Positions 1,262 to 27,237 are shown, counted from the first letter of the stretch. The stretch: 52,177 bases of DNA from Chloroflexota bacterium (GCA_034666465.1 JAXDLT010000047.1:1-52177); one strand, 5' to 3'. Made by a program: numbers and translations. The notes: generated by a model not told the origin, from the letters alone.

Positions 1262-1265
1262 GGCA

Positions 1266-2204: not shown

Positions 2205-2249
2205 GGCGTGGCTCCAGGAGGCGCGACCCGGGAAGGGGGCTGGTCACTT

Positions 2250-2276
2250 CATCGATACGAGAGCATAATATCGAAA
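2250..2276. promoter_or_regulatory. AT-rich divergent promoter region with two TATCGATA-like boxes (putative GntR operator)
   Basis: cATCGATA at 2250-2257 and TATCGAaA at 2269-2276 sit in the 123-bp gap between the divergent dioxygenase and monooxygenase genes. A perfect TATCGATA recurs at 4090-4097, upstream of the GntR gene. Confidence 0.4.
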
Positions 2277-2327
2277 TTCTGATCCGGCAAGTCCCCCCGG
2301 GTGCCGACGGACGAAGGAGTGGTGGTG

Positions 2328-4103: not shown

Positions 4104-4141
4104 TGGAGTGATTCCAGGATGAGGCGCAGTCTGAGCGACGG

Positions 4142-4861: not shown

Positions 4862-5613
4862 CAGTTCTCGACGGGACCGTCGCGCTGGTGACCGGCGCGT
4901 CGAGCGGCATCGGCAGGGCGACGGCGTATGCACTGGCCGGCCAGGGGGCGGCGGTGGCCCTCGCCGCCCGCCGCAGGGAACGGCTCGAGGAGGTGGCGGC
5001 CGACATCCGCCAGCGAGGAGGCACGGCCCTCGTCATCGAGAGCGACGTGACCGACGAGCACCAGGCGTCCGGCGCGGTCGAACACGCGGTGTCCGAGCTC
5101 GGGAGGCTCGACACGCTGGTCAACAACGCCGGCACGATGCTGCTCGGGCCCGCCGCCGGCGCCCCGCTCGACGAGTGGCAGCGGATGGTGGAGCTGAACG
5201 TGCTCGGCCTCCTCTACTGCACGCACGCGGCGCTCCCGCATCTGCTCGAGGCCGTGGACCGGGAACCCCGGCGTGTGGCCGACGTCGTGAACATCAGCTC
5301 GGTGGCCGGACGCTTCGCCCGCAACGGCAACGCCGTCTACGCGCTGACAAAATTCGGGGTCGGCGCGTTCAGCGAGTCGCTCCGCCAGGAGGTGACGAGG
5401 CGGTACCTGCGAGTGTCGCTGGTCGAGCCGGGCGCGACCGCCACGGAGCTCGCGAGCCACAACCGTCCCGAGATTCTCGAGAGCATCCGCACCCAGTTCG
5501 GGCAGACGATGGCCGCTGAGGACATCGCCGACGCGATCACCTACATCGTCACGCGGCCCCGTCATGTCACCATCAACGAGATCCTGATCCGGCCGACCGA
5601 ACAGGAGCGCTGA
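4858..5613 (+). CDS. Short-chain dehydrogenase/reductase (SDR)
   Basis: 251 aa with VALVTGASSGIGRATA (TGxxxGxG), NNAG and SSVAG..YALTKF (YxxxK). The GTG at 4858 overlaps the GntR TGA (GTGA). Confidence 0.9.
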   Translation: MTVLDGTVALVTGASSGIGRATAYALAGQGAAVALAARRRERLEEVAADIRQRGGTALVIESDVTDEHQASGAVEHAVSELGRLDTLVNNAGTMLLGPAAGAPLDEWQRMVELNVLGLLYCTHAALPHLLEAVDREPRRVADVVNISSVAGRFARNGNAVYALTKFGVGAFSESLRQEVTRRYLRVSLVEPGATATELASHNRPEILESIRTQFGQTMAAEDIADAITYIVTRPRHVTINEILIRPTEQER

Positions 5614-7336: not shown

Positions 7337-9007
7337 TCAGCGCGGGATGAAGGCGAGATGCTCGTGGACCGAGCGCACCGCGGCAGACCCCTCGCCGACC
7401 GCCGCCGCCACCCGCTTCACCGACCCGGAGCGGACGTCTCCCACCGCGAACAGCCCCGGCGAGCTCGTCTCGAACGGAAGAGGTCGCCGTCCGAGCGCTC
7501 GCCACCGCTCGTCGAGCCGGTCGTCGGTCAACGACCGGTCGGTGAGGACGAAGCCGCGGTCATCGAGGGCGGTGCACCCCGACAGCCACTCGGATGCGGG
7601 GTCGGCGCCGATGAACGAGAACAGCGACACGCAGGGCAGGGCCGCCTCGCCGGCGGATCCGGCGACGGTGACGCTGCCGAGCGTCTCGTCTCCGTCGAGC
7701 CCCACGATGTTGGTCTGGGTCATGACCTGCACATTGGGGTGATTCTCCAAACGGTCGACGAGGTAGCGGGACATCTGGGCGTCGAGCTCCGGCCCTCTGA
7801 TGACCACGGTCACCGGACTTCCCAGGTCGGCGAGGTAGGCCGCCGCCTGTCCGGCGGAGTTGCCGCCACCGACGACCACGACGGGGTTCCCGGCGCACTG
7901 GCGCGCCTCCACGTCGGTGGCGGCGTAGTAGACGCCTCTCCCCTCGAACTCCTGCAGGCGATCGACCATGAGCCGCCGGTAGCGAGCGCCCGATGCCACG
8001 ATCACCGCCCGCCCGGCGACGGAGGTGCGGTCGGAGAGGTCGATGACGAGATGGCCGGCCTCCTCCCGCAGCGCACTCGCCGCGCAGGGTGCGCTGAGCT
8101 GAGCGCCGAACTTCTCGGCCTGCACCAGCCCGCGCTGGGTGAGATCGCCGCCGGAGACGCCGAGGGGGAAGCCGAAGTAGTTCTCGATCCTCGAGCTCGT
8201 CCCGGCCTGGCCGCCGGAGGCGACACTGTCCAGCATCAGCGTCCGCAGGCCCTCGGACGCCCCGTAGACCGCCGCCGCGAGGCCCCCCGGCCCGGCGCCG
8301 ACGACGACGAGGTCGAAGCAGCGGCTGGGGAGGTTTCCCACCGTGAGCCCGAGGTACTCGGCGAGCGCCCCGGGGCTGGGCCGGCGGAGGACCGTGCCGG
8401 AGACGATGACGACCGGCAGCTCCGACGGCTGGATGCCGAACTCCCGAAGCAGGCTCTCCACCTGCGGGTCGGCGTCGGGGTCGAGCCACTCGTGGGGCAG
8501 GCGGCTCCGGGCGAGGAACTCGCGGACCTGGAGGGACTCCGGCGAGAACCGGGAGCCCACCACACGCGTGGCCGCCGCGGCGCCGGTGAGGAGCGCGGTC
8601 CGGCGGGCCATGAACGCGGCGAGGATCTTGTCGCTGAGCCTGGGCAGGGTGGCGATGACCCGCCGGAGCGCATCGGCCGGCACGACCAGGACCTCGCCGG
8701 CCTCGCCGACCCGCGCCGACACGAAGACCCTCTGGCGGGTGAGGAGGTTCAGCTCGCCGAGGAAGCGTCCGCGATCGTGGCTGGCGATGAGCCGCTCCTC
8801 GCCGCCGGCGCGGAGGACGATGTCCACCCGGCCCGAGAGGACGACGTAGAAGTCGTAGGCGGGGTCACCCTCGCGGTAGAGGTACTCGCCGACCTCGACC
8901 GTTCGACGGCTGCCGAGCGGCTCCAGAGATGCGAGCTCGGAGTCGTCGAGGGTCGGAAAGGCGGACTCGTCGGTCACCGCCGGGGTGGGAGGGTTCGGGG
9001 AGGTCAT
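7337..9007 (-). CDS. Cyclic-nucleotide-binding domain fused to a thioredoxin-reductase-like FAD/NAD(P) oxidoreductase
   Basis: 556 aa. The N-terminal cNMP-binding fold reads GEYLYREGDPAYDFYVVLSGRV..GRFLGELNLL. The C-terminal half has DLVVVGAGPGGLAAAVYGASEGL, VVVVGGGNSAGQAAAYL and GLFAVGDVR. I see no CxxC redox pair where TrxR has one (..ATDVEARQCAG..). Confidence 0.85.
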   Translation of the reverse strand: MTSPNPPTPAVTDESAFPTLDDSELASLEPLGSRRTVEVGEYLYREGDPAYDFYVVLSGRVDIVLRAGGEERLIASHDRGRFLGELNLLTRQRVFVSARVGEAGEVLVVPADALRRVIATLPRLSDKILAAFMARRTALLTGAAAATRVVGSRFSPESLQVREFLARSRLPHEWLDPDADPQVESLLREFGIQPSELPVVIVSGTVLRRPSPGALAEYLGLTVGNLPSRCFDLVVVGAGPGGLAAAVYGASEGLRTLMLDSVASGGQAGTSSRIENYFGFPLGVSGGDLTQRGLVQAEKFGAQLSAPCAASALREEAGHLVIDLSDRTSVAGRAVIVASGARYRRLMVDRLQEFEGRGVYYAATDVEARQCAGNPVVVVGGGNSAGQAAAYLADLGSPVTVVIRGPELDAQMSRYLVDRLENHPNVQVMTQTNIVGLDGDETLGSVTVAGSAGEAALPCVSLFSFIGADPASEWLSGCTALDDRGFVLTDRSLTDDRLDERWRALGRRPLPFETSSPGLFAVGDVRSGSVKRVAAAVGEGSAAVRSVHEHLAFIPR

Positions 9008-11646: not shown

Positions 11647-12570
11647 ATGTCAGGCATGGAGCTGCGCCAACTCCGGTACTTCCTCGCGGTGGCCGAGGAG
11701 CTGAACTTCGGCCGGGCCGCCGAGCGACTGCTGATCGCCGGACCCTCCCTCTCTCAGCAGATCAAGGCGCTCGAACACGACCTGGGGGTGCGGCTCTTCG
11801 ACCGCGACCGCCGCTCGGTGGCCCTCACCCCAGCCGGCGCGGCCCTGCTCCCACACACCAGGGCGTTGCTGGAACGGGCCGCCGACCTGCGGCGCCGCGC
11901 CGGCCAGATGTCTGGCTCCGAACCGGTCCGGCTCGGCTACGTCAGCTGGCTGCCCGCAGACTTGACCGCCCGCACCTCCGCGGTAGCGCAGCTGCACATC
12001 GACGCCTGGATCGCGCCATCGCACACACAGACCGTCCGGGTCGCGGACGGCAGCCTGGACTTGGCGGTGTGCTGGGTCCGCACACAGGACCTGGAGCAGT
12101 ACGGGCTCATAGCCCGGCTCATCGGCGCCGACCGCCTCTACGCGGTCGCCACCGGTGACGACACCAGCGATGTCCGCGCCGAGGATACCGCTGTTCTCCT
12201 CGATGACGACATCACCTCCTGGGCATCCTGGAACCTCTATGCCGAACAACTGGCCCGTGACACCGGCGCCCGCGTGGTACGGATCTCCGACGGCGGCATC
12301 ACCGGCCCCGCCTTCTTCGACCACGTGCGCCGCAGCCGCAGCCCCATCGTCAACTCGCCCAAGGGCCAGGCCACGCCGCTTCCGCCCGACCTGGTCCGGC
12401 GCCCGGTGAGCGCCCCGGAGGTCTACTGGACCTGGTCATTGGTCTGGCGACGCGGCGAGGCGCGCGCCGCCGTCCTGGCGGTGGTGGACGGCCTCACCCA
12501 CGGGGTCGGCGACCTCGAAATCCATCCGCCGGACGCTTGGCTGCCCGACAGCGACCCGCACAACCAGTAG
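11647..12570 (+). CDS. LysR-family transcriptional regulator
   Basis: 307 aa with MELRQLRYFLAVAEELNFGRAAERLLIAGPSLSQQIKALEHDLGVRLFDRDRRSVALTPAG. It is divergent from the MLI-like/DUF4331 operon. ATG 11656 is an alternative start. Confidence 0.9.
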   Translation: MSGMELRQLRYFLAVAEELNFGRAAERLLIAGPSLSQQIKALEHDLGVRLFDRDRRSVALTPAGAALLPHTRALLERAADLRRRAGQMSGSEPVRLGYVSWLPADLTARTSAVAQLHIDAWIAPSHTQTVRVADGSLDLAVCWVRTQDLEQYGLIARLIGADRLYAVATGDDTSDVRAEDTAVLLDDDITSWASWNLYAEQLARDTGARVVRISDGGITGPAFFDHVRRSRSPIVNSPKGQATPLPPDLVRRPVSAPEVYWTWSLVWRRGEARAAVLAVVDGLTHGVGDLEIHPPDAWLPDSDPHNQ

Positions 12571-12686
12571 GTATCCCGCTGCAGACGGGGTGCCGCTCAG
12601 GCCGAGACACGCCGTGAACCGCGCTGGGTTCGGTGCAGACTCAGGGGGGGTTGACGGAGCAGTTCGGCGTGGCGCGTCGAGTGGTG

Positions 12687-12723
12687 GTTCGGTGACCGGT
12701 TCACCTCGAACCGGTCACCGAAC
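12687..12723. terminator. Perfect 16-bp stem / 5-nt loop hairpin between the convergent lysR-like and katG genes
   Basis: GTTCGGTGACCGGTTC-acctc-GAACCGGTCACCGAAC, read directly. It ends 12 nt from the katG stop codon. There is no U-tract, as is common in high-GC actinobacteria. Confidence 0.6.
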
Positions 12724-12734
12724 GGGAACGTCGA

Positions 12735-15390
<2,656 letters not shown>

Positions 15391-15399
15391 CGCGGGGGA

Positions 15400-15429
15400 A
15401 CCTTACGCCGCCTAGGTTGATCCTGTCAA
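15400..15429 (-). promoter_or_regulatory. furA promoter: TTGACA - 18 nt - TAAGGT, giving a (near-)leaderless transcript
   Basis: On the minus strand the -35 TTGACA is at 15424-15429 and the -10 TAAGGT is at 15400-15405. Only 9 nt separate the -10 from the furA ATG (15390), and there is no SD. Confidence 0.5.
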
Positions 15430-15431
15430 GG

Positions 15432-15450
15432 TTTTGGATAGTATCCAAAA
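15432..15450. promoter_or_regulatory. Perfect 19-bp palindrome TTTTGGATAgTATCCAAAA abutting the furA -35 (putative FurA box)
   Basis: Read directly. It has 9-1-9 symmetry, is AT-rich in a GC-rich background, and lies 2 nt upstream of the -35 hexamer. Confidence 0.6.
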
Positions 15451-15474
15451 AGGTCGGCCCGCGCAGGTTGGCGC

Positions 15475-17325
15475 TTATGCAGCCAGCACGCGCTCGTGAG
15501 CGAGCTGGGCGCCGAGAACATGGGCGAACAACTCCATCGCCGCCCGGACCGTGCCGGGGAGTTTCCGCTCCGCAGCGCTCGCGCCACCGATCCAGCCGAT
15601 GAGGCCGCCATCAGACCCGAACATCGGCACGCTCAGCTCGGTCAGGAGGCTCAGCGCTTCCGACAGTGGCCTGCAGTCACCGTCATCGGTCGGCGAGTAC
15701 GCGACGACCAACCCCTCTGGCACCACCAGCCGATCGCCATTGTGAACGTACCAGACCTTGCCCGCCCGTCCCTCGAGCCGGCGGAGCACATAGGTGCAGT
15801 CCAGGCCGCTGAGCTCCTGTAGATCTGCAAGCAACCGCCGGACCAGAGGCTCCAGATCCGGCTCCGCAGACACCACCTCGGAGATGGCGTCCAGCTGCTC
15901 ATCGCCCGTCTTCATGAGCACTCCGAAGGCCGCGAGGGCCATCGAGCGTCGGAATTTGCGTTCAAAAGTGGTGGGATCGACCGGACGGCTGAAGATGTAG
16001 CCCTGCGCCTCGTCACACCCGTGGAGACGCAGGAATGCGAGCTGGTCCGTGGTCTCAACGCCTTCAGCCACGACCCGCAGCCCCAAGCCGTGACCCATCG
16101 CGATGATGGCTCCCAGCAGCGGTGCCCTGTCGCCGCCCGTCACCAACTCGTCGACGAAGCCCTTGTCGATCTTCAGTGTATCCCCGGGGAAATGGCGAAG
16201 GGTGTCCAACATCGAATAGCCGGTGCCGAAGTCGTCGATGGCGACACGTACTCCCATCGCCTGAAGGCGGTGGACGGTCTTCGCAGTATTCTCGTGCCGG
16301 ACGGCCACTCGTTCGCTGAGTTCCACCTCCATCTGGCCCGGGGGCAGACCATGGCGGCGCAGGCTCTCCGCGACGCGGTCCACGACGCTTCCGTCGTCGA
16401 ATTGGCCACCCGAGGCGTTGACCGAGATGCGGACTGGAGGCAGTCCCGCGTCCCGCCAGGCCCTTGCCTGGGCACAGGCGGTGTCGATGACCCATGCATC
16501 GATGTCCGCGATCAGTCCGGCTCTCTCGGCGATGGGGATGAAGCGGTCCGGTCCGATGGTTCCGCGTACAGGGTGATCCCACCGGACCAGGGCTTCGGCG
16601 CCGACCATGCAGCCCGAACGCAGATCGACCAGGGGCTGGTACACGAGGCGCATCTCCCCACGCTCCACGGCGCGCCAGAGGTCACGCTCCAGAGCGGTCC
16701 GGTCGAGCAGGGCGTCGTGCATGCTGCGGTCGAAGACCACGCGACGACCCTTGCCGCTCTCCTTTGCTGAGCACATGGCAATGTCCGCGTTGCGCAGCAG
16801 CTGGTCGGGATCGGTCTCGTTGGCATGGGCCACTGCCACCCCAACGCTGACGCTGATGAAGACCTCACGCCCCTGAACGGTGAACGGCTGCCGTAGGGCG
16901 GCAAGAATCCGGTCCGCGACACGCTTGGCGTCGTCGACGCTGGCGACGTCCTCGAGCAGGACAGCGAACTCGTCGCCCCCGAGCCGCGCGGCGCTGTCAC
17001 CGGGGCGCAGGCACGCCCTCATCCGCTCAGCTGCCGCGATCAGCAGCTCGTCGCCTGCAGCGTGACCAAGGCCGTCGTTCACCTGCTTGAAGTTGTCGAG
17101 GTCGAGATAGAGAACCCCCGCCGCTGAACGCAGGCGCCCGACCCGAGCGAGGTTGATCGCGAGGCGGTCCAGGAAGAGCGCTCGGTTGGCGACGCCGGTC
17201 AGGGGATCGTGGAGGGCGTCTCGGGTGGCGCGCTCGGCGATGGCCTCGGCTTCGAGACGGGCTCGGCGCTCCCGTTCGTATTTGCGTCGCAGCCGCCGCG
17301 CCTCCTCCCGTTCGACCTCACACAT
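15475..17325 (-). CDS. GGDEF-EAL diguanylate cyclase/phosphodiesterase with an N-terminal coiled coil and a C-terminal GAF-like domain
   Basis: 616 aa with RLGGDEF, an RxxD I-site (RPGD) 5 residues upstream of it, GAEALVRW, DDFGTGYS, KIDKGFV and EGVET. About 155 extra residues follow the EAL domain. Confidence 0.9.
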   Translation of the reverse strand: MCEVEREEARRLRRKYERERRARLEAEAIAERATRDALHDPLTGVANRALFLDRLAINLARVGRLRSAAGVLYLDLDNFKQVNDGLGHAAGDELLIAAAERMRACLRPGDSAARLGGDEFAVLLEDVASVDDAKRVADRILAALRQPFTVQGREVFISVSVGVAVAHANETDPDQLLRNADIAMCSAKESGKGRRVVFDRSMHDALLDRTALERDLWRAVERGEMRLVYQPLVDLRSGCMVGAEALVRWDHPVRGTIGPDRFIPIAERAGLIADIDAWVIDTACAQARAWRDAGLPPVRISVNASGGQFDDGSVVDRVAESLRRHGLPPGQMEVELSERVAVRHENTAKTVHRLQAMGVRVAIDDFGTGYSMLDTLRHFPGDTLKIDKGFVDELVTGGDRAPLLGAIIAMGHGLGLRVVAEGVETTDQLAFLRLHGCDEAQGYIFSRPVDPTTFERKFRRSMALAAFGVLMKTGDEQLDAISEVVSAEPDLEPLVRRLLADLQELSGLDCTYVLRRLEGRAGKVWYVHNGDRLVVPEGLVVAYSPTDDGDCRPLSEALSLLTELSVPMFGSDGGLIGWIGGASAAERKLPGTVRAAMELFAHVLGAQLAHERVLAA

Positions 17326-17329
17326 ACCG

Positions 17330-17893
17330 TCAGGCCCCGGGAGACAGGGTGCAGGCGAGAACGCAGCGCACGTGGCCTTCGAGCATGCAGATGGGCTGTT
17401 CGATGCTCACCCGCTCGCCGAAATGGTCCGCCGCTCCCTCGATGAAACCCTCGGCCAACGCGCACAGACGCCGAGCCGACCGGTAACCGATGACGAGCCG
17501 ATCGGCGCCCTCGAGGCCTGCGACCGCATCGAAGTCGAACACCGGAGGGGTGGCACCCGGGTAGAGCTTGCGTACCTCAGGGTGGATGATCTCGTTGAGG
17601 GTGAGCAGGAACGAGCGAGCCGAGGAGTGCCCCGTGAAGAACATCGGGTAGCGCTGCGCGAGTAGAGGGATGGAGCGCCGGCCGAACCACCGCAACAGAC
17701 TCGCCTGGCCCTCGGTGGCACCGAGCTCGCTGGGCATGCACGTGAGCAGGGTCGAGAACTCCTCATCGCTGTAGTTGCCAAGCGACGTGTAGGCTCCATC
17801 GACCCCCGAGCGCTCGAGCACCTCTTCCCAGGCCGCCTCTCCGAACTCCTGCGTCACCGTCTCCTCGAAGAGGTTGAAGATGATGCCCTTCAT
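17330..17893 (-). CDS. Stand-alone H-NOX (heme nitric oxide/oxygen binding, HNOB) domain protein
   Basis: ORF 17330..18112. I prefer ATG 17893 (MKGIIFNLFEETV), which has GGAGGG 8 nt upstream. A candidate proximal His lies in IIHPEVRKLYPGATPPVF, and the Y-x-S-x-R motif (YRSAR) lies 33 residues later. The stop is 4 nt before the GGDEF-EAL ATG. Confidence 0.8.
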   Translation of the reverse strand: MKGIIFNLFEETVTQEFGEAAWEEVLERSGVDGAYTSLGNYSDEEFSTLLTCMPSELGATEGQASLLRWFGRRSIPLLAQRYPMFFTGHSSARSFLLTLNEIIHPEVRKLYPGATPPVFDFDAVAGLEGADRLVIGYRSARRLCALAEGFIEGAADHFGERVSIEQPICMLEGHVRCVLACTLSPGA

Positions 17894-18507
17894 TGACGTC
17901 GCCCTCCATACGACTGTCGTCTCTCGAACCGTCCCTCTGTCCTCCCGGGTGAGGCTCGACCCGGGACCAGGTCCGAGCGACCTGCTTGTCGCTGACGCCG
18001 GTACTGTACGCCACGCGCGCGCGGAGGTGGAGACGCCAAACCGGAGCCGGGACCAGTGGAGGGGATGGCGGCACCCGATTCTTGACGGGACGCCGGAGGA
18101 CAGCAGGCGCACTGAGGTGAGCGTCGGTAGTGAGCGCCATGGAGGTGAGTGTGGACCGCCGCGAGGGCGCTGAGGAGCGCGTGATCCGTTTGTGACGCTC
18201 TCGGCACGATGCCACCGGCCGGCGTGCCCGGCCTCTGCTCGCTGCCGTTGTGACGGGACTCACCGCAGTAACGTCACAGGAACAGGTGCCGTGCGCTACG
18301 CCGCGACCTTGCGCCAGGTGCCCGCGGAGTACGCCCAAGTGTCGGTGTATTTCACCGGCGAGCCCGCCGCATCGTTCGCTGCGCCTCCCCACAGCAGCGC
18401 CCCGAACGCAGCTCGTCAGGGCTCCGCTGGCACGACCTCCACGCGCACCACCTCGGTGGCCGCAACGGCGCGGCGCACGCCGGCCGCCTCGCGCGGTCAG
18501 GTGCCGA

Positions 18508-19380
18508 TCATCCGCCCGCGCCACCATGGCCGCTGACGTCGAGGAGGGTGATCGCCAGGACGCCGGGAATGGTTGTCGGAGTGCCGCCCTCATCGTCTCC
18601 CGCCTGGCTCGAGGTGAGGAGCCTGCTCCCGTTGACCGACAGGATGTAGGACGAGCGGGGATGGTCGCTCGACGCCTCCGAGTGGAGCACGATGAGGGCC
18701 AGTGTCCCGTTGAGGGCGGTGACATGGACGCCGTTGTCGACGGCGTCGCCGCGCGACATGGCACCGGTGTAGGTCGCGTCGCTCGCCGACTCCAGGAGGC
18801 CCACGGTCAGCAACGAGGCCCCTGGCGTGTCGCCGAGGAGCGCGAGGTCGACCAGTGCGGCGCGGGAGTGCGAGAAGGACGTGGACCGCTCGGCATCGAC
18901 GCCGCAGGTCGACCTCCAGTCGGCGATGGCGAGGCTGAGGAACGGGTTGACGGGCAGCGCCAGCAGCGCCCCCCTCTGCGAAGCATCGGAGACGCTCTCT
19001 CCTCCAGCGATCTCGTGGCCGACGAGGCGGATCGCACTGGCACTGCCATCGGGTCTCTGCGTGCCCGCGCGGGCGGTGGTGCAGCTGACGCAGGTCTGGA
19101 AGTACTCGACGTCGACGACGCTGCCCGCCGCGCCGCTCGTCGCAGCCGGTCGGGTGTCGCGGGTCCGGAGAGCGGGCGGGGTGGACGGGTCGCCGGTCGC
19201 CCCGGGAATCGCGGGGATCCCAGTGGCGGAAGTGGCGTGGCGTGCCTGCTGGACAGTCGGCCCGGCCGGTGGGCGGCCGGTCGGAGGTGTGACGCCGGCG
19301 AGGGCGATCGATCCTTCGCTGAGGATGAGCACGGCCGCCCCTGAGAACGCGAGACCGGCTCGCATGAAGTGCTCGATCAC
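18508..19380 (-). CDS. Hypothetical secreted protein (signal peptide, Pro/Thr-rich linker, about 200-aa domain of unknown function)
   Basis: 290 aa. The N-terminus MIEHFMRAGLAFSGAAVLILSEGSIALAGV is signal-peptide-like. It is the only frame here with balanced composition and high GC3. Confidence 0.6.
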   Translation of the reverse strand: MIEHFMRAGLAFSGAAVLILSEGSIALAGVTPPTGRPPAGPTVQQARHATSATGIPAIPGATGDPSTPPALRTRDTRPAATSGAAGSVVDVEYFQTCVSCTTARAGTQRPDGSASAIRLVGHEIAGGESVSDASQRGALLALPVNPFLSLAIADWRSTCGVDAERSTSFSHSRAALVDLALLGDTPGASLLTVGLLESASDATYTGAMSRGDAVDNGVHVTALNGTLALIVLHSEASSDHPRSSYILSVNGSRLLTSSQAGDDEGGTPTTIPGVLAITLLDVSGHGGAGG

Positions 19381-19450
19381 AGCGTGGACCCTCGTGGCTC
19401 GGGGGCGGCTGTCTCGAATACCGGCTGCCTCGGCCAGCGTGAAAGATCAC

Positions 19451-19479
19451 AGTATAGTAATAAACGTCAGGCTTGCCAA
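19451..19479 (-). promoter_or_regulatory. Strong sigma-70/SigA-type promoter TTGGCA - 17 nt - TATACT facing the secreted-protein gene
   Basis: On the minus strand the -35 is at 19474-19479 and the -10 is at 19451-19456, within an AT-rich island about 70 nt upstream of the 19380 start. Confidence 0.5.
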
Positions 19480-19531
19480 GGGCGCCACCGGCCCTTCCGG
19501 AACCGGCGATCGCCTTCCTCGAGGGCGTCGG

Positions 19532-20707
19532 TCAGCCAGGGTCACCGATGCCGCGGTCTCGAGCATGCAGCGCGGCCTGTGTACGGCTCTGTACGCCCAG
19601 CTTGTCGAAGATGCGCTTGACATGCGTCTTCACGGTGTTCTCGTGGATGCCGAGCCGGCGACCGATCTCCTTGTTGGCGCACCCCGCGACGATCAGCTCC
19701 AGGACGTCGTGCTCTCGGTTGGTCAGCGGTTCGGGCTCGACCGTCCGAGCCGGGGCGTTGGGCTGCAGCCGTGCATGGCGGGTGGCCCCGGAGACGCCGC
19801 CGGCAGGGAGATGGAACTCGAGAACGGCACCGGCGAGTCGGTCTGCGTCGTAGACAGGTGTGGAGACCGCATGGACCGCGGCACCCGCCGGCAGTGGCAC
19901 CTCGACGACAAACGCCTCGCCGCGGCCGACTGCGCTCTGGACCATCTGCCACAGGAGCGCCTGCGGCGAGCGCTCCAACAGGCGGGCGGCGGGAGCGTTG
20001 GTGATCATCGCCCGGTCGCCGAGCGCCACGACGGGCCGGTCCTCATCAGCCCGCATGGCTCGCAGGAAGCGCTGGAGGAGCAGACGCTCGTGCGCCGAGG
20101 CCTCCTCGTACAGCGCCCGCTCGATCTCCCGTGCCGCCTGCGTCACCAGAGGCAGGACGAGTGGATTCGCATGGCTGTGGAGACAGGTGACGTCGAGCAG
20201 ACCCTCGAGACGCTGCGAGATCGGATGGAACACCGGCGCCGCGTAGCAGGCCATCGGTTGCAGTGCCTCGGCGAAGTGCTCGCTGCCCAGCACGCTCAGG
20301 GCACGTCCCGCGGTCAGCGCGGTACCGATCGCATTGGTGCCGGTGGCGTGCTCGGCGTAGGCGAAGCCCGGGGCGAGCAGAATCCTGTCGAGGTGCGTCC
20401 GCACCGGTGCGTCCTCGGCACGACGGTGGATCACCTGGCCGTCCGCGTCGGTGAGGATGACACCCATGCCCATGCCCGAGAGTTGCGACGCGAGGCGATC
20501 CAGCACCGGGCCGGCGGCCCTCGCGAACCGGTTCTCCCGATCGACGTCGGGCGAGTACGGGACGTTGAACGTATCCGGAGTCAGACCGGCGACCTGCGAG
20601 CGATGCCACGAGGCGATGATCTCCTGGCGCACGATGCGCCGAGGTGCGCCACCCGTCAGGATGCGGTCCCTGTCCTCGGACACCGGATCCCGGGACTTCA
20701 CCAACAC
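19532..20707 (-). CDS. GAF-domain (AcoR-N-like) LuxR-family transcriptional regulator
   Basis: ORF 19532..20842. The N-terminal region reads RQEIIASWHRS..GMGVILTDADGQVI..GTNAIGTAL. The C-terminal LuxR HTH reads LTNREHDVLELIVAGCANKEIGRRLGIHENTVKTHVKRIFDKLGV. GC3 drops upstream of about 20707, so I prefer the GTG/TTG/GTG cluster at 20701-20707 as the start. The start remains uncertain. Confidence 0.8.
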   Translation of the reverse strand: MLVKSRDPVSEDRDRILTGGAPRRIVRQEIIASWHRSQVAGLTPDTFNVPYSPDVDRENRFARAAGPVLDRLASQLSGMGMGVILTDADGQVIHRRAEDAPVRTHLDRILLAPGFAYAEHATGTNAIGTALTAGRALSVLGSEHFAEALQPMACYAAPVFHPISQRLEGLLDVTCLHSHANPLVLPLVTQAAREIERALYEEASAHERLLLQRFLRAMRADEDRPVVALGDRAMITNAPAARLLERSPQALLWQMVQSAVGRGEAFVVEVPLPAGAAVHAVSTPVYDADRLAGAVLEFHLPAGGVSGATRHARLQPNAPARTVEPEPLTNREHDVLELIVAGCANKEIGRRLGIHENTVKTHVKRIFDKLGVQSRTQAALHARDRGIGDPG

Positions 20708-21020
20708 CCGCCCGGTTCCGGCGACGATCGGCCTGCCGGCCGTAGACGGTGCGATTCGCGGGCCGGACGCTGTCGGCCACTCGCAGGAAAGCTCACCACG
20801 GCGGTCCGTTCGGAGGGTCCAGAGGAGCACCAATCGTACCATGCCATGTCACAGCGGCCGATCCCGCGTGCGAGGAGCCGACCCTCAGACGAAGGGGTGA
20901 GACCCCGCTCATACCAACGGGTGACGCCGGCACCCCGCCTCCTCAGGCATCGTTCCCTGCGGTGCGAGTCGCGCGTATCGCGGCCGAGGAGGTGATGCCA
21001 CCGATGGGGAGGCGTGGATC

Positions 21021-23999
21021 ATGGTCGCCTACGACCGAGAGCCGCTGGACCCGAGCGCGGTGTCCTGGTCACCTCCGCACGCAGCGGGTGCGGTGGCGAC
21101 CGGGTCGGCGTCTCTCTCGATCCATCGCGGCACGGCGAGGGTGGTGACACCGACCACGACCGTGGCCGACGCCATCATCTCGACCGCGAGGACCACATCG
21201 ACGACCAGGCTGCAGGGCCGGAGCCGAGAGTGCCGGACCGTCGACCAGCTGGTCGCCGCCGCCCGTTCGGGGAGGAGCGGTGCCCTGCTCGTGCACGGCG
21301 CGCCGGGGATCGGCAAGTCCGCGCTCCTCGACCACGCGACGGAGGCCGCATCGGACTTCCGAGTCGCCCGCGCCGCCGGCGTCCAGTCGGAGATGGAGCT
21401 CGCCTTCGCCGGGCTGCACCAGTTCTGCGGGCAGATGCTCGGCCGCCTCCACCGGCTCCCCGGCCCCCAACGTGATGCGCTCAGCGCCGCCTTCGGTCTC
21501 ACCCCCGGCGTCGCGCCGGATCGCTTCCTCGTCGGCCTGGCCGTGCTCAGCCTGCTCGACGAGGTGGCCCAGGACCGGCCGCTGCTCGGGGTCGTCGAGG
21601 ACGCCCACTGGCTGGACCAGGCCTCCGCCCAGGTGCTCGCGTTCGTGGCCCGCCGCCTCCATGCCGTGCCGGTCGCCCTGATCTTCGCCGTACGCGACCC
21701 CGGTCCGGCGGCGGAGTTCGCGGGGATCCCCGAGCTGGAGCTCACCGGTCTGCCCGACGCCGACGCCCGCAGGCTGATCGCCTCGGTGATACCCGGACGG
21801 TTCGACGAACGGGTGCGCGACCGGATCGTCGCCGAGGCCCGGGGCAACCCGCTCGCCCTGCTCGAGCTGCATCACGGGCTGTCGGCCGCCGAGCTCGCCG
21901 GCGGCTTCGGGCTGACCGCCAGGCAGCCGCTGACCGGGCGGATCGAGGAGAGCTTCGTGCGCCGGATCGAGGCGCTCCCGGCGGAGACCCGACGGCTGCT
22001 CCTGATCGCGGCGGTCGAGCCCTGTGGCGAGCCGGCGCTGCTCCGGCGTGCGGCGGAACGGATGGGGATCGGCTGCGACGCCGCCGCCCCCGCCGAGGCC
22101 GACGGGCTGCTCCGCATCGGCGCACAGGTGAGCTTCCGTCACCCGCTGGTGCGCTCGGCGGTCCACCACGCGGCGTCTCCCGACGAGTGCCGGAGAGCCC
22201 ATCGCGCGCTCGCCGAGGCCATCGACCCCGACGTCAGTCCCGATCGCCGCGCCTGGCACCATGCCGAGGCGGCGCTCGGACCCGACGAGGAGGTCGCCGG
22301 CGACCTCGAGCGCTCGGCCGGAGAGGCCCGGACTCGGGGTGGCATGGCGGCGGCGGCAGCCTTCCTGGAGCGAGCCGCCGCGCTGACCCCCGATGCCACC
22401 CGCCGCGTGGAGCGCATCCTCGCCGCCGCCCGCGCCAAGCTGCGGGCCGGGGCGCCCGACGCGGCCCTGGGCCTGCTCGCCGTGGCCGAGGGGGGGCCGC
22501 TCGACGCCCTGCAGGGCGCCCGGCTGGAGCGGCTGCGCGCCGAGATCACCTTCGCCACCAGCCGCGGCAACGACGCCCCTCCCCTGCTCATCCGGGCGGC
22601 CAGGCGGCTCGAGCTCCTCGATCCACGGCTGGCACGGGAGACGTACCTCCAGGCGTTCGAGGCGGCGATGTTCGCCGGGAGGCTCGGCCGCGGCCGCGGG
22701 GTGCTGGACGTGGCCGACGCGGCCCGGGCAGCGCCCCCCGCCCCCGGCCCGCCACGCGCCGTCGACCTCCTCCTCGACGGCCTGGCGACGCTGCTCACCG
22801 AGGGATGGGCCGCCGGCGTGCCCCTGCTGCGGCGGGCCCTGGGCGCCGTCGAGGAGGAGGACGAGCGTCGATGGCTCCGCCTCGCCCGTGGCACCGCCGC
22901 CGACCTGTGGGAGGACGGCGCCACCCACGCGCTCGCCGCCCGCGAGGTCGAGCTCGCCCGCGAGGCGGGTGCTCTCACCCTGCTGCCGACCGCCCTCGAC
23001 CACCTCGCCGTCATCCACGTGCACGCCGGTGAGTTCGCCACGGCGGCGTCCCTGATCGAGGAGGCGGCCTCCATCACCGAGGCGACGGGCGGGGCCCCGA
23101 TCAGCGGCGGCGCCCTCGAGCTCGCCGCCTGGCGGGGACGAGCGGAGACGGCGGCGCTCGTCGACGCGTGCGTCGAGGACGCCGAAGCGCGTGGCGAGGG
23201 GATGCTCGTCACCCTCACGGAGTACGCCACCGCGGTGTTCGAGAACGGCCGCGGCAACTACGGCGCCGCCCTCGCCGCCGCGCGCCAGGCGTGCGAGCAC
23301 GGGGGGCTCGTCGGCGTCCGGGTGCTCCCCGAGCACGTCGAGGCGGCGGTGCGGGCGGGCCACCCGGAGGAGGCCGCCGCAGCCCTCGAGCGGCTCACCG
23401 AGCAGACCCAGGCGAGCCGGACGCAGTCCGCGCTCGGCCTCGAGGCCCGCTGTCGGGCGCTGCTCAGCGAGGGCGACCCCGCCGACGAGCTGTACCGCGA
23501 GGCCGTCGACCGGCTCGGCCGCTGCCGTGGTGCGGCGCAGCTCGCCCGCGCCCACCTCCTCTACGGGGAATGGCTGCGACGCGAGCGCCGGCGGCTGGAG
23601 GCGCGCGAGCAGCTGCGCACCGCCCGCGACACGTTCCTGTCGATGGGCGCCGAGGCCTTCGCCGCCCGCGCCGAGCGTGAGCTGCTCGCCACCGGCGAGC
23701 ACGCCCGCAGGCGCACGGTGGAGACGACCTTCGAGCTCACCCCACAGGAGCTGCAGATCGCGGGCCTGGCCCAGGCCGGCCTCTCCAACCAGGTGATCGC
23801 CGCCCGGCTCTTCATCAGCCCGCGCACCGTCGAGTACCACCTGCACAAGGTCTTCACCAAGCTCGGCATCGCCTCACGCACCCGGCTCCACCAGGCGCTG
23901 CTGCCGGAGCTGACCGGAGCTCCCGTGCGCAGCGAGCCGGGCCACGCCGCGGTGCCAGGTGCTGCCGCAGGCGAGCCGTTGGTGTGCGCGGGCGGCTGA
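21021..23999 (+). CDS. Large ATP-binding LuxR-family regulator (LAL / MalT-like: AAA+ P-loop, TPR-like middle, C-terminal LuxR HTH), paralog 1
   Basis: 992 aa maximum with HGAPGIGKSALLDHA (Walker A), VVEDAHWLD (Walker B) and LTPQELQIAGLAQAGLSNQVIAARLFISPRTVEYHLHKVFTKLGI. The start is uncertain; in-frame GTG 21162 would match the paralog's N-terminus better. Confidence 0.85.
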   Translation: MVAYDREPLDPSAVSWSPPHAAGAVATGSASLSIHRGTARVVTPTTTVADAIISTARTTSTTRLQGRSRECRTVDQLVAAARSGRSGALLVHGAPGIGKSALLDHATEAASDFRVARAAGVQSEMELAFAGLHQFCGQMLGRLHRLPGPQRDALSAAFGLTPGVAPDRFLVGLAVLSLLDEVAQDRPLLGVVEDAHWLDQASAQVLAFVARRLHAVPVALIFAVRDPGPAAEFAGIPELELTGLPDADARRLIASVIPGRFDERVRDRIVAEARGNPLALLELHHGLSAAELAGGFGLTARQPLTGRIEESFVRRIEALPAETRRLLLIAAVEPCGEPALLRRAAERMGIGCDAAAPAEADGLLRIGAQVSFRHPLVRSAVHHAASPDECRRAHRALAEAIDPDVSPDRRAWHHAEAALGPDEEVAGDLERSAGEARTRGGMAAAAAFLERAAALTPDATRRVERILAAARAKLRAGAPDAALGLLAVAEGGPLDALQGARLERLRAEITFATSRGNDAPPLLIRAARRLELLDPRLARETYLQAFEAAMFAGRLGRGRGVLDVADAARAAPPAPGPPRAVDLLLDGLATLLTEGWAAGVPLLRRALGAVEEEDERRWLRLARGTAADLWEDGATHALAAREVELAREAGALTLLPTALDHLAVIHVHAGEFATAASLIEEAASITEATGGAPISGGALELAAWRGRAETAALVDACVEDAEARGEGMLVTLTEYATAVFENGRGNYGAALAAARQACEHGGLVGVRVLPEHVEAAVRAGHPEEAAAALERLTEQTQASRTQSALGLEARCRALLSEGDPADELYREAVDRLGRCRGAAQLARAHLLYGEWLRRERRRLEAREQLRTARDTFLSMGAEAFAARAERELLATGEHARRRTVETTFELTPQELQIAGLAQAGLSNQVIAARLFISPRTVEYHLHKVFTKLGIASRTRLHQALLPELTGAPVRSEPGHAAVPGAAAGEPLVCAGG

Positions 24000-24444: not shown

Positions 24445-25905
24445 TCAGGTGCGCAGCTGCAGGGACTTGGTCTCCAGGAACTCCTCCAGGCCCCACCGCC
24501 CCAGCTCGCGTCCCAGCCCCGACTGCTTGTAGCCGCCAAACGGCGCGAGAGGGTTGAATCCGCCACCGTTGACCTCGACCTGGCCGGTGCGCATGCGCCG
24601 GGCGAAGGCGCGGGCGCGCTCCTCGTCGGCCGACCACACCGCGCCGGCGAGGCCGTAGACGGTGCCGTTGGCGATGCGCAGCGCCTCCTCCTCGTCGTCG
24701 TAGGGCATGATCGCCAGCACCGGCCCGAAGATCTCCTCCTGGGCGATCGTCATCTCCGGGGTGACGTCGGCGAAGATCGTGGGCCGCACGTAGTAGCCGC
24801 ACGGCAGCCCCTCGGGCGCCGCGGCGCCGCCGGTCACCATGCGTGCCCCCTCGGCGAGACCGCGCTCGATGTAGCCGCGCACCCGCTCGCGCTGCGAGGC
24901 GGAGGCCAGCGGCCCCAGCCGTGCGTCCTCGCTGAGCGGGTCGCCGAGAGGCAGGCGCTCGGCCGCCGTCACCGCCAGGGCCACGACCTCATCCTGGCGC
25001 GCGCGCGGCACCACCAGGCGGGTGAGTGCGGTGCAGGTCTGCCCGCTGTTGAGGAAGGCGTTGCTCACACCGCTGCCCACCGCGCGTGCCAGGTCGGCGT
25101 CGTCGAGGAGGACGTTCGCGGACTTGCCGCCGAGCTCCAGGGCGACCCGCTTCACCGACTGCGCGGCCAGCTCGGCGACGCGCCGGCCCGCACGGGTCGA
25201 CCCGGTGAAGGAGACCATGTCGACCCGGGGGTGGGAGGCGAGCGCCTCGCCGACCACCGGCCCGGTGCCGCTCACCAGGTTGTAGACGCCGGGCGGGAGG
25301 CCGATCTCGTCGAGCACCTCGGCGAGCACGAACGCGCTGAGCGGCGCCACCTCGCTGGGCTTGTGGACCATCGTGCAGCCCGCGGCGAGCGCGGGCGCGA
25401 GCTTGGCGACGGTCTGGTGGAGCGGGTAGTTCCACGGCGTGATGGCGGCCACCACGCCCACCGGCTCGCGCACCACCAGGGAGTTGCCGACGCGCTCCTC
25501 GAAGGCGAAGTCCTCGAGGAGCTGCGCGAACAGGCCGGCGACCATGGCGGGCAGCCCCGCCTGGATCATGGTCGACATGCGCAGCGGCATGCCCACCTCC
25601 GTGGCGATGAGCCGGGCCAGCTCGTCGCCGCGAGCCGCCAGCCCCGCCTGGAGGCGGCGCAGCAGGGCGGCGCGCTCCGCCGGCGTGGTCGCCGACCACG
25701 CCGGGAAGGCGCGGGCGGCGGCGGCCACGGCCCGCTCGGCGTCGGCCGCGGTGCCCTCCGGGACGCTGCCGATCACCTCCTCCGTGGCGGCCCCCACCAC
25801 CTCGAGGCGTCCCGCCCCACTCGACTGCACCCAGGCGCCATCGACGAAGAGGGCGTCACGGTGGAGGGCGCCGGCGACGCCGCCACGGGTGTCGGTCTCC
25901 GTCAT
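24445..25905 (-). CDS. NAD(P)+-dependent aldehyde dehydrogenase
   Basis: ORF 24445..26274. The start is ATG 25905 (MTETDT), with AGGAGG 9 nt upstream. Motifs present: [20 protein letters not shown], and [10 protein letters not shown] (catalytic Cys). Confidence 0.9.
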
Positions 25906-25981
25906 CGTCGCGACCTCCTGCCAGGTGGAACGGAGCCGATTCTGACGGAGGCGGCTCGCAGGCTGCCGGCCGGTGGAGCGA

Positions 25982-26323
25982 TCAGCCCGTCCCGCCGCCG
26001 AGCGGCGCGATGGCCAGGTCGAGGGCGGGCTCCTCCACGGCCCTCGCCCGATGCGCCTGCGCCCTGACCCTGCAGCGCGACGAGCAGTACTGCGGCCTGC
26101 GACCACGGCCGGCCCACGAGAGCGCCGTCCCGCACTCGACGCACGAGAGGGTTCGGGATGCGGCACCGTCCGGTCTGGGCGCCCCCACGACGTCGACCGC
26201 CGGCTCGGGAGGATCGACGCCCATGCCGGCCGGGTCCATCGGGGTGGTGGATCGGCGGACATCGGGCGGTCCACACCTGCAGGGCGGCCAGACAGGGCAG
26301 TCGCAGAGGGGCTTGATCAGCAT
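25982..26323 (-). CDS. Small zinc-ribbon-like protein (CxxC ... YCSxxCRxRAxxxR), function unknown
   Basis: This is the C-terminal end of the otherwise spurious ORF 25982..28327: ..[37 protein letters not shown]... The start is uncertain; ATG 26323 or ATG 26239 are candidates. Confidence 0.4.
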
Positions 26324-26397
26324 GCGAACAAATGTACGCCCTCCCCTGCCGCCCGTCAACTCCGCCGAGGTGCGACGCCTCGGGTCCGCCCCCGCCG

Positions 26398-27237
26398 TCA
26401 GCCGCCGGCGGCCGGGCGCAGCGCGATGCCGAACTCGACGGCGAACGCCCGCCGTGGCGCGACGACACCGGCCAGCTCGGTGGGCCGGGGGGTGACGACC
26501 AGCTCGGGCTTCACGGCGCCGATGACGTCGTCCTCCAACCAGGGATCGCCGGCGATGAAGAGCATGGTGGTCAGCGCCTCGTGGCCCTCGGCGCTCGCCT
26601 TCACGTGGATGTGCGCGGGGCGGTTGTCGTGCCGGCCGAGCGAGGTGAGGAGGGCGGAGACGGGGCCGCCGGTGGTCGCGATCCGGTACGGACCGGGGAC
26701 GACGGTGCGCACCTCGTACCGCCCCTGCGCGTCGCACCGCACGCGTCCGCGCAGGTTGTACTCGGGCTGCGCGGGATCCTGATTCTCGTAGAGACCGTGC
26801 TGGTTGGCCTGCCAGACGTCGAGGACCGCGCCCGCCAGGGGCGCGCCCGACACCGCCTCGACGACCCGTCCGCGCATCAGCAGCGCATCCTCCCCCTGGT
26901 CGGCGTGGTCGAGCACCGCGGGGGTGTCGAGGATCGGGGCACCGGGCCGGTGGAGCGGACCCTCGACGTTGCTCGGCGTCGCTCCTCCGGCATCGGCCGG
27001 CTGGCCGAGCGCGTCGACCAGGATCGAGGTGTGGGTGACGTCGCTCAGGAGCATGAACTCCTCGGCCCCGCCCACCTCGGTGAGGAAGCGGACCAGCGCG
27101 TGGAGCTCCGGCTCGGTGAGGCGCAGCTCGCGGACCAGCTCGTGGACGGCGGTGACGGCGCGGAGGACGCAGGCACGCAGCCGCTCGGTCGTCTCGGGGC
27201 CGGTGGTGAGGCGGGGGGGAGTGGTCGCAGAGGTCAT
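26398..27237 (-). CDS. Intradiol ring-cleavage dioxygenase (hydroxyquinol/catechol 1,2-dioxygenase family)
   Basis: 279 aa. The Dioxygenase_N-like region reads LTEPELHALVRFLTEVG. Also present: VLDVWQANQHGLYENQ, GRYEVRTVVPGPY and RPAHIHVKASAEGH. AGGAG lies 8 nt before the ATG. Confidence 0.9.
   Translation of the reverse strand: MTSATTPPRLTTGPETTERLRACVLRAVTAVHELVRELRLTEPELHALVRFLTEVGGAEEFMLLSDVTHTSILVDALGQPADAGGATPSNVEGPLHRPGAPILDTPAVLDHADQGEDALLMRGRVVEAVSGAPLAGAVLDVWQANQHGLYENQDPAQPEYNLRGRVRCDAQGRYEVRTVVPGPYRIATTGGPVSALLTSLGRHDNRPAHIHVKASAEGHEALTTMLFIAGDPWLEDDVIGAVKPELVVTPRPTELAGVVAPRRAFAVEFGIALRPAAGG

Follow-up and report, generated by a model that had tools for sequence, protein, structure and literature searches.

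A stand-alone H-NOX gene adjoining a gene for a predicted bifunctional cyclic di-GMP enzyme on a 52-kb contig

The hnoX locus

The DNA considered here, contig JAXDLT010000047.1, is a complete NCBI contig of 52,177 bp, to which we refer as the window. On its minus strand lie hnoX, the gene for a stand-alone H-NOX protein (a heme sensor of the nitric oxide (NO)-binding family), and, directly 3′ of it, the gene for an enzyme with GGDEF and EAL domains, the cyclase and phosphodiesterase modules of cyclic di-GMP (c-di-GMP) metabolism (Table 1). We call this enzyme the partner. H-NOX/c-di-GMP switches are a textbook route from NO to biofilm decisions, and to our knowledge every characterized case is proteobacterial.

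A preliminary description of this DNA had recognized an H-NOX protein of 187 residues whose stop codon falls 4 nt before the ATG of a GGDEF-EAL protein with intact-looking catalytic motifs. Translation confirms the coordinates, the length, and the spacing, Pfam searches and motif reading confirm the two identities, and nothing in that observation is owed to chance. The hnoX product begins with MKGIIFNLFEETV (translation of 17330..17893, minus strand), a GGAGGG Shine-Dalgarno sequence stands 8 nt 5′ of its ATG, and its TGA is followed by CGGT and then by the partner ATG. The linkage is operon-like. Gene order and spacing are identical in seven independent metagenome contigs, across which the pair itself is identical or nearly so, with mostly synonymous differences, and the locus is present in about 30 JGI metagenome blocks. 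Adjacency to and co-orientation with hnoX, the arrangement that marks an H-NOX-associated c-di-GMP enzyme (HaCE), are kept in orthologues as well; in the loci L059, L061, and L066 the two genes overlap by 23 nt, compared with the 4-nt gap of the window.

The GC content at third codon positions (GC3) is 0.846 for hnoX, 0.80 for the partner gene, and 0.834 for a neighboring MimR-GAF-LuxR gene, compared with 0.911 ± 0.022 for 19 other window genes, which places hnoX and the partner 3–5 standard deviations below those genes. These values are compatible with horizontal acquisition but are no proof of it, as the neighboring regulator is low too.

Table 1. Features of the hnoX locus and its immediate surroundings
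Feature	Coordinates	Strand	Basis
hnoX, stand-alone 187-residue H-NOX (heme NO-binding) sensor	17330..17893	-	Pfam HNOB, PDB phmmer, residue mapping
Partner, H-NOX-associated c-di-GMP enzyme, predicted bifunctional, 616 residues: N-terminal helix, GGDEF, EAL, degenerate GAF	15475..17325	-	Pfam, synteny
Charged helix of partner, residues ~8-38 (RRLRRKYERERRARLEAEAIAERATRDAL), motif RERxARxEAExI[AS]E, runs straight into GGDEF	17212..17304	-	
GGDEF (diguanylate cyclase) domain, residues 37-193	16747..17217	-	Pfam E=4.9e-47, motifs from translation
EAL (c-di-GMP phosphodiesterase) domain, residues 214-448	15982..16686	-	Pfam E=9.7e-73, motif reading
Predicted degenerate GAF domain, residues ~490-616, after a ~40-residue helical linker	15478..15858	-	phmmer, AlphaFold2 (AF2), Foldseek
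furA promoter/operator region, directly after the partner stop	15400..15450	-	Read from sequence
furA	14953-15390	-	Pfam FUR
katG	12735-14960	-	Pfam peroxidase
290-residue protein, no Pfam match, N-terminal hydrophobic segment, Pro-rich linker	18508-19380	-	

The H-NOX protein

The hnoX product matches Pfam HNOB (PF07700) over the full profile (positions 1–163 of 163; E = 2.1e-34; 119.2 bits against a cutoff of 25.5), in line with the preliminary assignment. Its nearest solved structures, found by phmmer against the PDB, are those of the NO-sensing Shewanella oneidensis (So) H-NOX (2kii and 4u99; E about 1e-20), which is 31% identical to the window protein in our alignment; Tt H-NOX comes next and then Nostoc H-NOX. 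Residues were mapped by aligning the window protein with So H-NOX, Tt H-NOX (identical to 1u4h), and six relatives, and conservation was read from 53 aligned sequences, namely 50 relatives, the window protein, and the So and Tt references.

The proximal heme ligand maps to His104 (So H103, Tt H102), which is invariant in 53/53 sequences. The conserved heme-distorting proline is P117 (Tt P115), and the heme-propionate clamp is Y137-x-S139-x-R141 (Tt Y131-S133-R135). This clamp is the YRSAR motif that had been placed 33 residues beyond a candidate proximal His, and the alignment supports both the motif and the spacing (His104 to Y137). Like the His, the Pro, Tyr, and Ser are present in every one of the aligned H-NOX sequences. 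The distal pocket is another matter. The W9/N74/Y140 triad that stabilizes O2 in Tt H-NOX is replaced by F9/S74/L146 in the window protein, and the position of Tt Y140 holds Leu or Phe in 51 of the 53 sequences, so that the distal Tyr and the W9/N74 network of an O2-binding, Tt-type H-NOX are both missing from the window protein in this alignment. In the H-NOX family, O2 binding depends mainly on a distal Tyr (PMC12329717). The pocket of the window protein would be of the hydrophobic, NO-selective type, and because it is hydrophobic and Leu146 replaces the Tyr, the protein is expected to bind NO and ignore O2.

The protein also has a full 3Cys+Gln zinc site (C144/Q166/C169/C177, at the positions of So C139/H161/C164/C172). 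Its Cys trio is found in 50/53 sequences, with Gln as the fourth ligand in 31 and His in 20. These are the residues described for groups 2 and 3 of a published sequence similarity network (SSN), in which the zinc site consists of three Cys and a His or Gln, the latter being Gln171 in Vibrio cholerae (PMC7108781). Binding of both heme and zinc by the window H-NOX is thus predicted from its residues.

The partner enzyme

Pfam searches of the partner give significant matches to GGDEF and to EAL (Table 1). The GGDEF motif (residues 116–120) is preceded by R114 and has an RxxD I-site (RPGD, 107–110) exactly five residues before it. Metal- and guanine-binding residues lie within LDLDNFKQVNDGLGHAAGD, and the other active-site residues of the domain (D75/D77, N83, and D92) are present. 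On the EAL side we find EAL-x-R at 244–248 (E244-A-L, R248), N303, ExxE (E335/E338), DDFGTGYS at 364–371 (D364/D365), KID at 385–387 (K385), EGVET at 421–425 (E421), and QGY at 441–443 (Q441). The preliminary reading of RLGGDEF, the RxxD I-site, EAL, DDFGTGYS, and EGVET as intact therefore holds in the translation, and the catalytic residues of both domains are all invariant among the orthologues of our partner alignment (A1). On these grounds, the partner is likely to be bifunctional, acting as both cyclase and phosphodiesterase. Orthologues encoded after hnoX are 49–50% identical in L059 and L061 and 44% identical in L066.

No sensor domain precedes the GGDEF domain; residues 1–38 form a single charged helix (MCEVEREEARRLRRKYERERRARLEAEAIAERATRDAL). 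The partner had been described as lacking an N-terminal PAS domain and carrying an extra C-terminal domain, and Pfam indeed finds neither a PAS domain nor a significant C-terminal family. The accompanying statement that PAS is usual at this position does not stand for the H-NOX subfamily considered here, in which helix-GAF-GGDEF-EAL is the usual layout instead.

A conserved helix at the partner N terminus

The same charged helix is found in alignment at partner N termini with or without a following GAF domain. We searched for it with a loose pattern, R-x(0,1)-[AEK]-R-x(1,2)-[AE]-E-x-[IVL]-[AS]-[EQ]. At 37–98 nt past the hnoX end, the motif occurs in 28 of 32 GGDEF-EAL partners and also in 12 of the 24 remaining loci, where nine of the ten downstream genes scanned encode histidine kinases. 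These kinases have the layouts helix-GAF-HisKA-HATPase, helix-HisKA-HATPase, and a hybrid kinase that has two receivers and an Hpt domain, so that the motif is shared by cyclase and kinase partners across at least five phyla.

The motif is specific to neighbors of hnoX. In 1.03 million six-frame residues of the loci L001–L051 there are 38 matches, all on the hnoX strand, and among the matches listed all lie just downstream of hnoX. The window's 104,350 six-frame residues contain one match, the partner N terminus itself, and 97 unrelated GAF/GGDEF/EAL control proteins contain two, one of them in a member of the window's partner clade. Across 21 aligned helices, a stretch of about 18 consecutive positions keeps R, E-R, A-R, A-E, I, E, and R without or almost without change, and this conservation exceeds the needs of a heptad coiled coil. 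In alignment A1, about 71% of the first 45 partner residues are invariant, compared with an overall identity of 49–50%. A non-exhaustive check of the H-NOX literature found no description of the motif. By its conservation and by analogy with the coiled-coil helices of soluble guanylate cyclase, the helix would be where H-NOX touches its partner and exerts control over it.

The C-terminal domain

For residues ~458–616 of the partner, Pfam gives no significant match, the best being GAF (E = 0.13; 13.2 bits against a cutoff of 22.4), and a word-indexed homology search with the C-terminal 159 residues returned the window's own fragment only. When 1.84 billion representatives were searched exhaustively with phmmer, 98 matches to this region came out at E<=1e-3; 44 of them were scanned, and GAF_2 was found in 31 and GGDEF in 28. 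Alignment of the region (A4) places it in a GAF subfamily with two conserved Cys residues (PEGLxVPWxDTLC...GTLCGAS). Compared with that subfamily, the window domain lacks 18 residues, among them the first Cys segment (DTLC), and GTLCGAS has become GWIGGAS. A single-sequence AlphaFold model of the domain was unusable (pLDDT 39.8). With A4 as input, AF2 gave a pLDDT of 89.1 for the domain, and the best Foldseek matches in the PDB are phytochrome GAF domains (probability 1.00, TM score ~0.68). GAF had been suggested as one family to try for the extra domain, and the sensitive search, the model, and the fold comparison all point to a GAF fold, even though the Pfam score is below threshold. Alignment and model together mark the C-terminal domain as a degenerate form of GAF.

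The region is both coding and under constraint, since its codon-position GC (.74/.46/.81 at positions 1/2/3) is the same as in the remainder of the gene, seven of its ten nucleotide differences in the variant L055 are synonymous, and diverged versions exist. The latter are found in L066, whose 626-residue partner has a further reduced domain, and in the proteins P0127 (51% identical, with the same deletion) and P0156; in L059 and L061, the first GAF helix alone remains. The window domain is 35% identical to a GAF domain of the "TLCGAS" type but only 13–17% identical to the N-terminal GAF domains of the relatives. It more likely serves in dimerization, in scaffolding, or as a structural element than in ligand sensing.

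The two-Cys GAF subfamily (PEGLxVPWxDTLCRRAL ... GTLCGAS; proteins P0128–P0223 of the phmmer search; alignment A4), from which the window domain derives with loss of both Cys, is found mostly N-terminal to GGDEF or GGDEF-EAL domains. Its two conserved Cys residues suggest a thiol-based or cofactor-binding sensor.

Relatives and distribution

Databases contain more than 2,500 relatives of the window H-NOX, many of them 55–68% identical. For comparison of gene neighborhoods, we used 51 related loci, one genome per species, with H-NOX proteins 38–60% identical to that of the window. Actinomycetota-labeled genomes account for 23 of them (the complete genome of Conexibacter sp. DBS9H8, Solirubrobacterales, Acidimicrobiia, Frankiales, and Nanopelagicales); the others come from Alphaproteobacteria (Sphingomonas and Novosphingobium), Verrucomicrobiota, Chloroflexota, Acidobacteriota, and a Steroidobacteraceae metagenome-assembled genome (MAG). 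By tblastn, GGDEF-EAL is encoded directly 3′ of hnoX in 29 of the 51 loci and in 16 of the 23 labeled Actinomycetota. The preliminary description had held such pairs to be essentially confined to Proteobacteria and a few other phyla and had named, as an outcome that would count against it, pairs that are common and already characterized in related actinobacteria. The expected rarity is not borne out, and the pairs are indeed common there; they are not characterized. Actinobacterial H-NOX sequences were pointed out in SSNs in 2020 and 2022, with the remark that no H-NOX from Gram-positives had been reported as an NO sensor. Such pairs are mentioned in the literature, with none characterized among Gram-positive-type lineages, and the description of the pair as uncharacterized stands. 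A literature search for H-NOX in Dormibacterota found no papers.

The short helix-GGDEF-EAL layout is a minority one, seen in L001 (Steroidobacteraceae), L002 (Vicinamibacterales), L003 (Frankiales), L026 (Acidimicrobiales), L059, L061, and L066. The C-terminal extension, among the loci compared, occurs in the window's immediate clade only. In a neighbor-joining tree of H-NOX sequences, which carries no support values, the nearest neighbors of the window are L066, L061, and L059, joined next by L001, L002, and L003. Members of this clade come from different taxa but agree in partner architecture, and across the tree partner architecture follows the H-NOX clades. Such a combination fits co-transfer of hnoX and its partner, and the horizontal origin for which a phylogeny had been proposed as a test agrees with it, within the limits of an unsupported tree. 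The module as a whole shows signs of horizontal spread. Orthologous hnoX-partner pairs persist at 44–67% identity.

The host lineage

The genome had been called actinobacterial in type. To place the host, we looked for named cluster mates at >=90% identity for nine window proteins; the names are those of MAGs and not formal classifications. Mates named Chloroflexi or Chloroflexota were found for the dioxygenase, FurA, aldehyde dehydrogenase, ABM protein, FAA hydrolase, and thioredoxin reductase. The aldehyde dehydrogenase also has a mate from "Candidatus Dormibacteraeota bacterium," the SNF2 helicase has one whose MAG name is legible only as "Candidatus ...," and the sole Actinomycetota-named mate belongs to one FAA hydrolase. 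KatG is 93–94% identical to Dormibacteraeota/Chloroflexi MAG proteins, compared with 85–88% for those of Acidimicrobiaceae and Pseudonocardiaceae. KatG was dropped as a lone taxonomic marker, as the furA-katG block is 93–96% identical in nucleotide sequence between contigs with unrelated flanks, and the taxonomy was re-tested on other genes through their cluster mates at 90%.

Within Bacillati, Candidatus Dormiibacterota is a phylum in its own right. In our judgment, the host is probably an uncultured bacterium of Dormibacterota/Chloroflexota type, and an Actinomycetota host is unlikely, a probable reassignment relative to the preliminary description. The features that give the window its "actinobacterial" look (70% GC, an F420H2-dependent quinone reductase, LAL-type regulators, and furA-katG) are evidently common to the Dormibacterota/Chloroflexota-type lineage.

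The furA-katG block

The genes furA and katG lie 85 nt 3′ of the partner on the same strand. Between the partner stop and furA, an AT-rich palindrome (TTTTGGATAC/TATCCAAAA) at 15450–15432 is followed by TTGACA at 15429–15424, an 18-nt spacer, and TAAGGT at 15405–15400, and the furA ATG at 15390 comes 10 nt past these promoter elements. The palindrome is likely a FurA box with a near-leaderless promoter. We treat this operator/promoter as context, with no demonstrated part in the H-NOX module. Just past the katG stop, an inverted repeat of 16 perfectly matched bp around a 5-nt loop (12687–12723) is likely a terminator.

The segment from 12659/12681 to 15461/15464, which holds furA-katG, is 93–96% identical in nucleotide sequence in L064 (a Dormibacteraeota MAG), L065, and L067. 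These contigs, drawn from Dormibacteraeota/Chloroflexi MAGs and from metagenomes, have unrelated flanks and carry neither hnoX nor the cyclase gene, and the closest hnoX relatives (L059, L061, and L066) lack furA-katG. The block begins 11–14 nt past the cyclase stop and ends just beyond the katG hairpin, and its breakpoints recur at ~12659–12681 and ~15461–15464. Among repeats flanking the block, the katG hairpin is the sole meaningful feature, and no terminal repeats of the mobile-element type were seen. The unit from furA operator to katG hairpin has the look of a cassette that recombines or is exchanged horizontally. The variant L055 departs from the window right after katG.

Because the adjacency is specific to the window's lineage, it is weak evidence of shared function. 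A functional link through conserved synteny was rejected on the same ground, and any functional link of the hnoX module to furA-katG is speculative.

Discussion

The window pair is most readily understood as a two-gene sensor-effector switch of the H-NOX/HaCE type, and we consider it probable that H-NOX binds the N-terminal helix of the partner and shifts the partner dimer between making c-di-GMP and hydrolyzing it. In the mechanism we propose, heme would be bound through His104 and the Y-S-R propionate clamp, in a hydrophobic pocket where Leu146 in place of the O2-stabilizing Tyr would let O2 be ignored and NO be bound. H-NOX would dock in trans on the RERxARxEAExI[AS]E helix of the partner. 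Breakage of the Fe-His bond once NO binds, or zinc-thiolate oxidation, would rearrange H-NOX and so alter the helix's register or packing within the partner dimer. The partner would thereby be toggled between c-di-GMP synthesis by the GGDEF domain, feedback-limited by the RxxD I-site, and hydrolysis by the EAL domain. Shewanella woodyi suggests by analogy that c-di-GMP would fall when the sensor has bound its ligand. The parts of this scheme that we infer are the docking site, the regulatory direction, and the physiological signal, and judging by the pocket residues NO is the most likely signal. Where the preliminary description had proposed an NO (or O2) to c-di-GMP circuit, the NO half is thus retained, with the uncertainty that the zinc-thiolate site and the Caulobacter precedent bring, and the O2 half is disfavored by F9/S74/L146.

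Several considerations weigh against this interpretation. The Caulobacter H-NOX (group 3), the closest characterized subfamily member in the literature, is not activated by NO, and NO may not be the signal here either. The docking role of the helix is drawn from conservation and genomic association, and a charged stalk helix before a GGDEF or HisKA domain also dimerizes, which could by itself explain part of the conservation. The bifunctionality of the partner is likewise deduced from motifs, the neighbor-joining tree has no support values, and the clade is known here from sequence alone.

The Caulobacter precedent leads to the most serious rival, an oxidant or redox sensor in which oxidation of a Cys144/Cys169/Cys177 zinc thiolate, or of the heme iron, activates the protein and ties c-di-GMP to oxidative stress. 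We take it seriously because the zinc-thiolate site is intact, the Caulobacter result of 2025 is at hand, the host is apparently aerobic, and no NO-related genes lie within the 52 kb, where neither an NO-generating nor an NO-detoxifying gene was seen. There is precedent in Caulobacter crescentus (Cc) H-NOX and in the heme-free V. cholerae (Vc) H-NOX. The Fe(II)-NO form of Cc H-NOX is inactive, whereas thiol oxidation activates the protein (PMC12329717); its published group also includes actinobacterial sequences. The zinc site is of the same type as that of Vc H-NOX (Cys149, Gln171, Cys174, and a last Cys given as Cys177 or Cys182, the numbering being inconsistent; PMC7108781), and its retention in 50 of the 53 aligned sequences points the same way. 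Oxidant sensing would fit an aerobic soil bacterium and the furA-katG genes on the same strand downstream, but the adjacency of these genes is not conserved, the block occurring elsewhere without hnoX and the nearest hnoX relatives doing without the block, and furA has its own promoter and operator. Moreover, the heme-binding and NO-type pocket residues are all retained. Weighing these points, we regard oxidant sensing as the less probable role, with the proviso that NO and oxidant modes may coexist.

Two other readings fare far worse. The fold and heme ligands are common to Tt H-NOX, which would allow an O2 sensor like that of obligate anaerobes, but the W9/N74/Y140 triad has given way to F9/S74/L146, the Tyr position is Leu or Phe throughout nearly the whole alignment, and the window H-NOX is stand-alone rather than fused to a methyl-accepting chemotaxis protein. 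We rejected O2 sensing on the distal-pocket residues and consider it very unlikely. Hardly more credible is a decaying, recently transferred cassette without regulated function, for instance with a non-heme H-NOX or a dead partner. The low GC3 of both genes, the degenerate C-terminal GAF domain (a single helix in L059 and L061), and strain indels in the region (L063) would agree with decay. However, the low GC3 of the neighboring regulator suggests that this value may reflect gene class, the catalytic and cofactor-binding residues are all intact, the pair is near-identical in the seven metagenome contigs with mostly synonymous differences, and orthologous pairs are maintained at the identities given above.

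A bolder extension of the switch we favor would make the helix a portable H-NOX receiver for GGDEF-EAL enzymes, GAF-containing kinases, and hybrid kinases, a trans equivalent of the signaling helix of soluble guanylate cyclase (sGC), and would have the module, in aerobic soil lineages such as that of the window, report oxidant stress instead of NO via the zinc thiolate, linking c-di-GMP to furA-katG. We consider this combination unlikely as a whole.

The kind of system is already known, and the locus is an expected type of module in a modest variant. Its nearest counterpart is the S. woodyi SwH-NOX/SwDGC pair (HaCE), likewise a stand-alone NO-type H-NOX beside a bifunctional GGDEF-EAL enzyme. 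The N-terminal region of SwDGC is, we presume, of PAS type, whereas the window partner has only a 38-residue helix before its GGDEF domain, carries a C-terminal degenerate GAF domain, and belongs to a different host phylum. In SwDGC, NO switches the enzyme from cyclase to phosphodiesterase, and direct protein-protein regulation is established for this pair, for Legionella pneumophila Lpg1056/Lpg1057 (Hnox1/Lpg1057), and for Dinoroseobacter shibae H-NOX/Dgc1 (PMC8846402). In the latter two, both proteobacterial, H-NOX also adjoins a diguanylate cyclase, and NO-bound H-NOX inhibits it; only the cyclase activity is described as regulated (PMC8846402), whereas the GGDEF and EAL domains of the window partner both look competent.

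Caulobacter H-NOX/HnoK (SSN group 3) shares, by description, the NO-type heme pocket and the 3Cys zinc site with the window protein. Its host is aerobic and non-denitrifying, and Cc H-NOX is activated by oxidation rather than by NO (PMC12329717). HnoK is a histidine kinase, whereas the window partner is a GGDEF-EAL protein, and Cc H-NOX has His160 as fourth zinc ligand where the window protein has Gln166. The uncharacterized helix-GAF-GGDEF-EAL systems of Conexibacter, Solirubrobacterales, Sphingomonas, and Chloroflexia have H-NOX proteins 50–56% identical to that of the window and the same helix motif and GGDEF-EAL core. Their partners have a GAF domain between helix and GGDEF and nothing after EAL, whereas the window clade (the window, L066, P0127, and P0156) has no N-terminal GAF but a C-terminal one of another subfamily. 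A more distant likeness is to sGC, the animal NO receptor, in which H-NOX movement is relayed via coiled-coil or signaling helices to a nucleotide cyclase (PMC6839917). There, H-NOX acts in cis with PAS and coiled-coil segments and the output is cGMP; in the window, sensor and enzyme are separate polypeptides and c-di-GMP would be the output.

What sets this case apart is the probable host phylum, the minimal helix-only N terminus, the C-terminal degenerate GAF domain, and a partner helix motif that runs through the subfamily. The roughly 50 loci show the module to be widespread in soil lineages of Terrabacteria type (Actinomycetota, Chloroflexota, and probably Dormibacterota). With one helix alone between its N terminus and its cyclase domain, the window partner is minimal, and the motif offers a concrete, mutable candidate for the long-sought contact site between H-NOX and its partners. 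The window pair is also a good system for testing the recent claim that some H-NOX proteins sense oxidants and not NO, given that its zinc-thiolate site is intact and its host apparently aerobic and non-denitrifying.

Other features of the window

The whole window was scanned with Rfam, and 15300–19600, which takes in the 614 nt upstream of hnoX, was scanned permissively, a c-di-GMP riboswitch being one of the elements sought; neither gave anything credible. A promoter/terminator consensus scan of 12500–21200 returned one promoter-like and one terminator-like match, no more than shuffled sequence did, and is uninformative at 70% GC.

Upstream of hnoX, across a noncoding gap of 614 nt, lies the gene for the 290-residue protein of Table 1, which is always found 5′ of hnoX in the strain variants L052–L058 and L063. 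A MimR_N-GAF-LuxR regulator is also encoded upstream. In L063, whose H-NOX is 92% identical to that of the window, an ABM gene is joined directly to the 290-residue gene, an indel of ~4.5 kb relative to 19532–23999 of the window; this variant lacks the MimR_N-GAF-LuxR regulator and a 992-residue AAA_16-GerE (LAL) regulator.

Farther away, 7337–9007 (minus strand) encodes a 556-residue fusion of a cyclic nucleotide-binding domain and a thioredoxin reductase-like pyridine nucleotide-disulfide oxidoreductase. It adjoins a TetR regulator and may be an unusual cyclic nucleotide-regulated redox enzyme. Aromatic catabolism genes lie around the locus (1–5613 and 24445–27237), among them genes for FAA hydrolase, a glyoxalase-type dioxygenase, an FAD aromatic-ring hydroxylase, a catechol/protocatechuate dioxygenase, and an aldehyde dehydrogenase. 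The window also encodes two large LAL regulators and a fused PabA-PabB (32087–34228).

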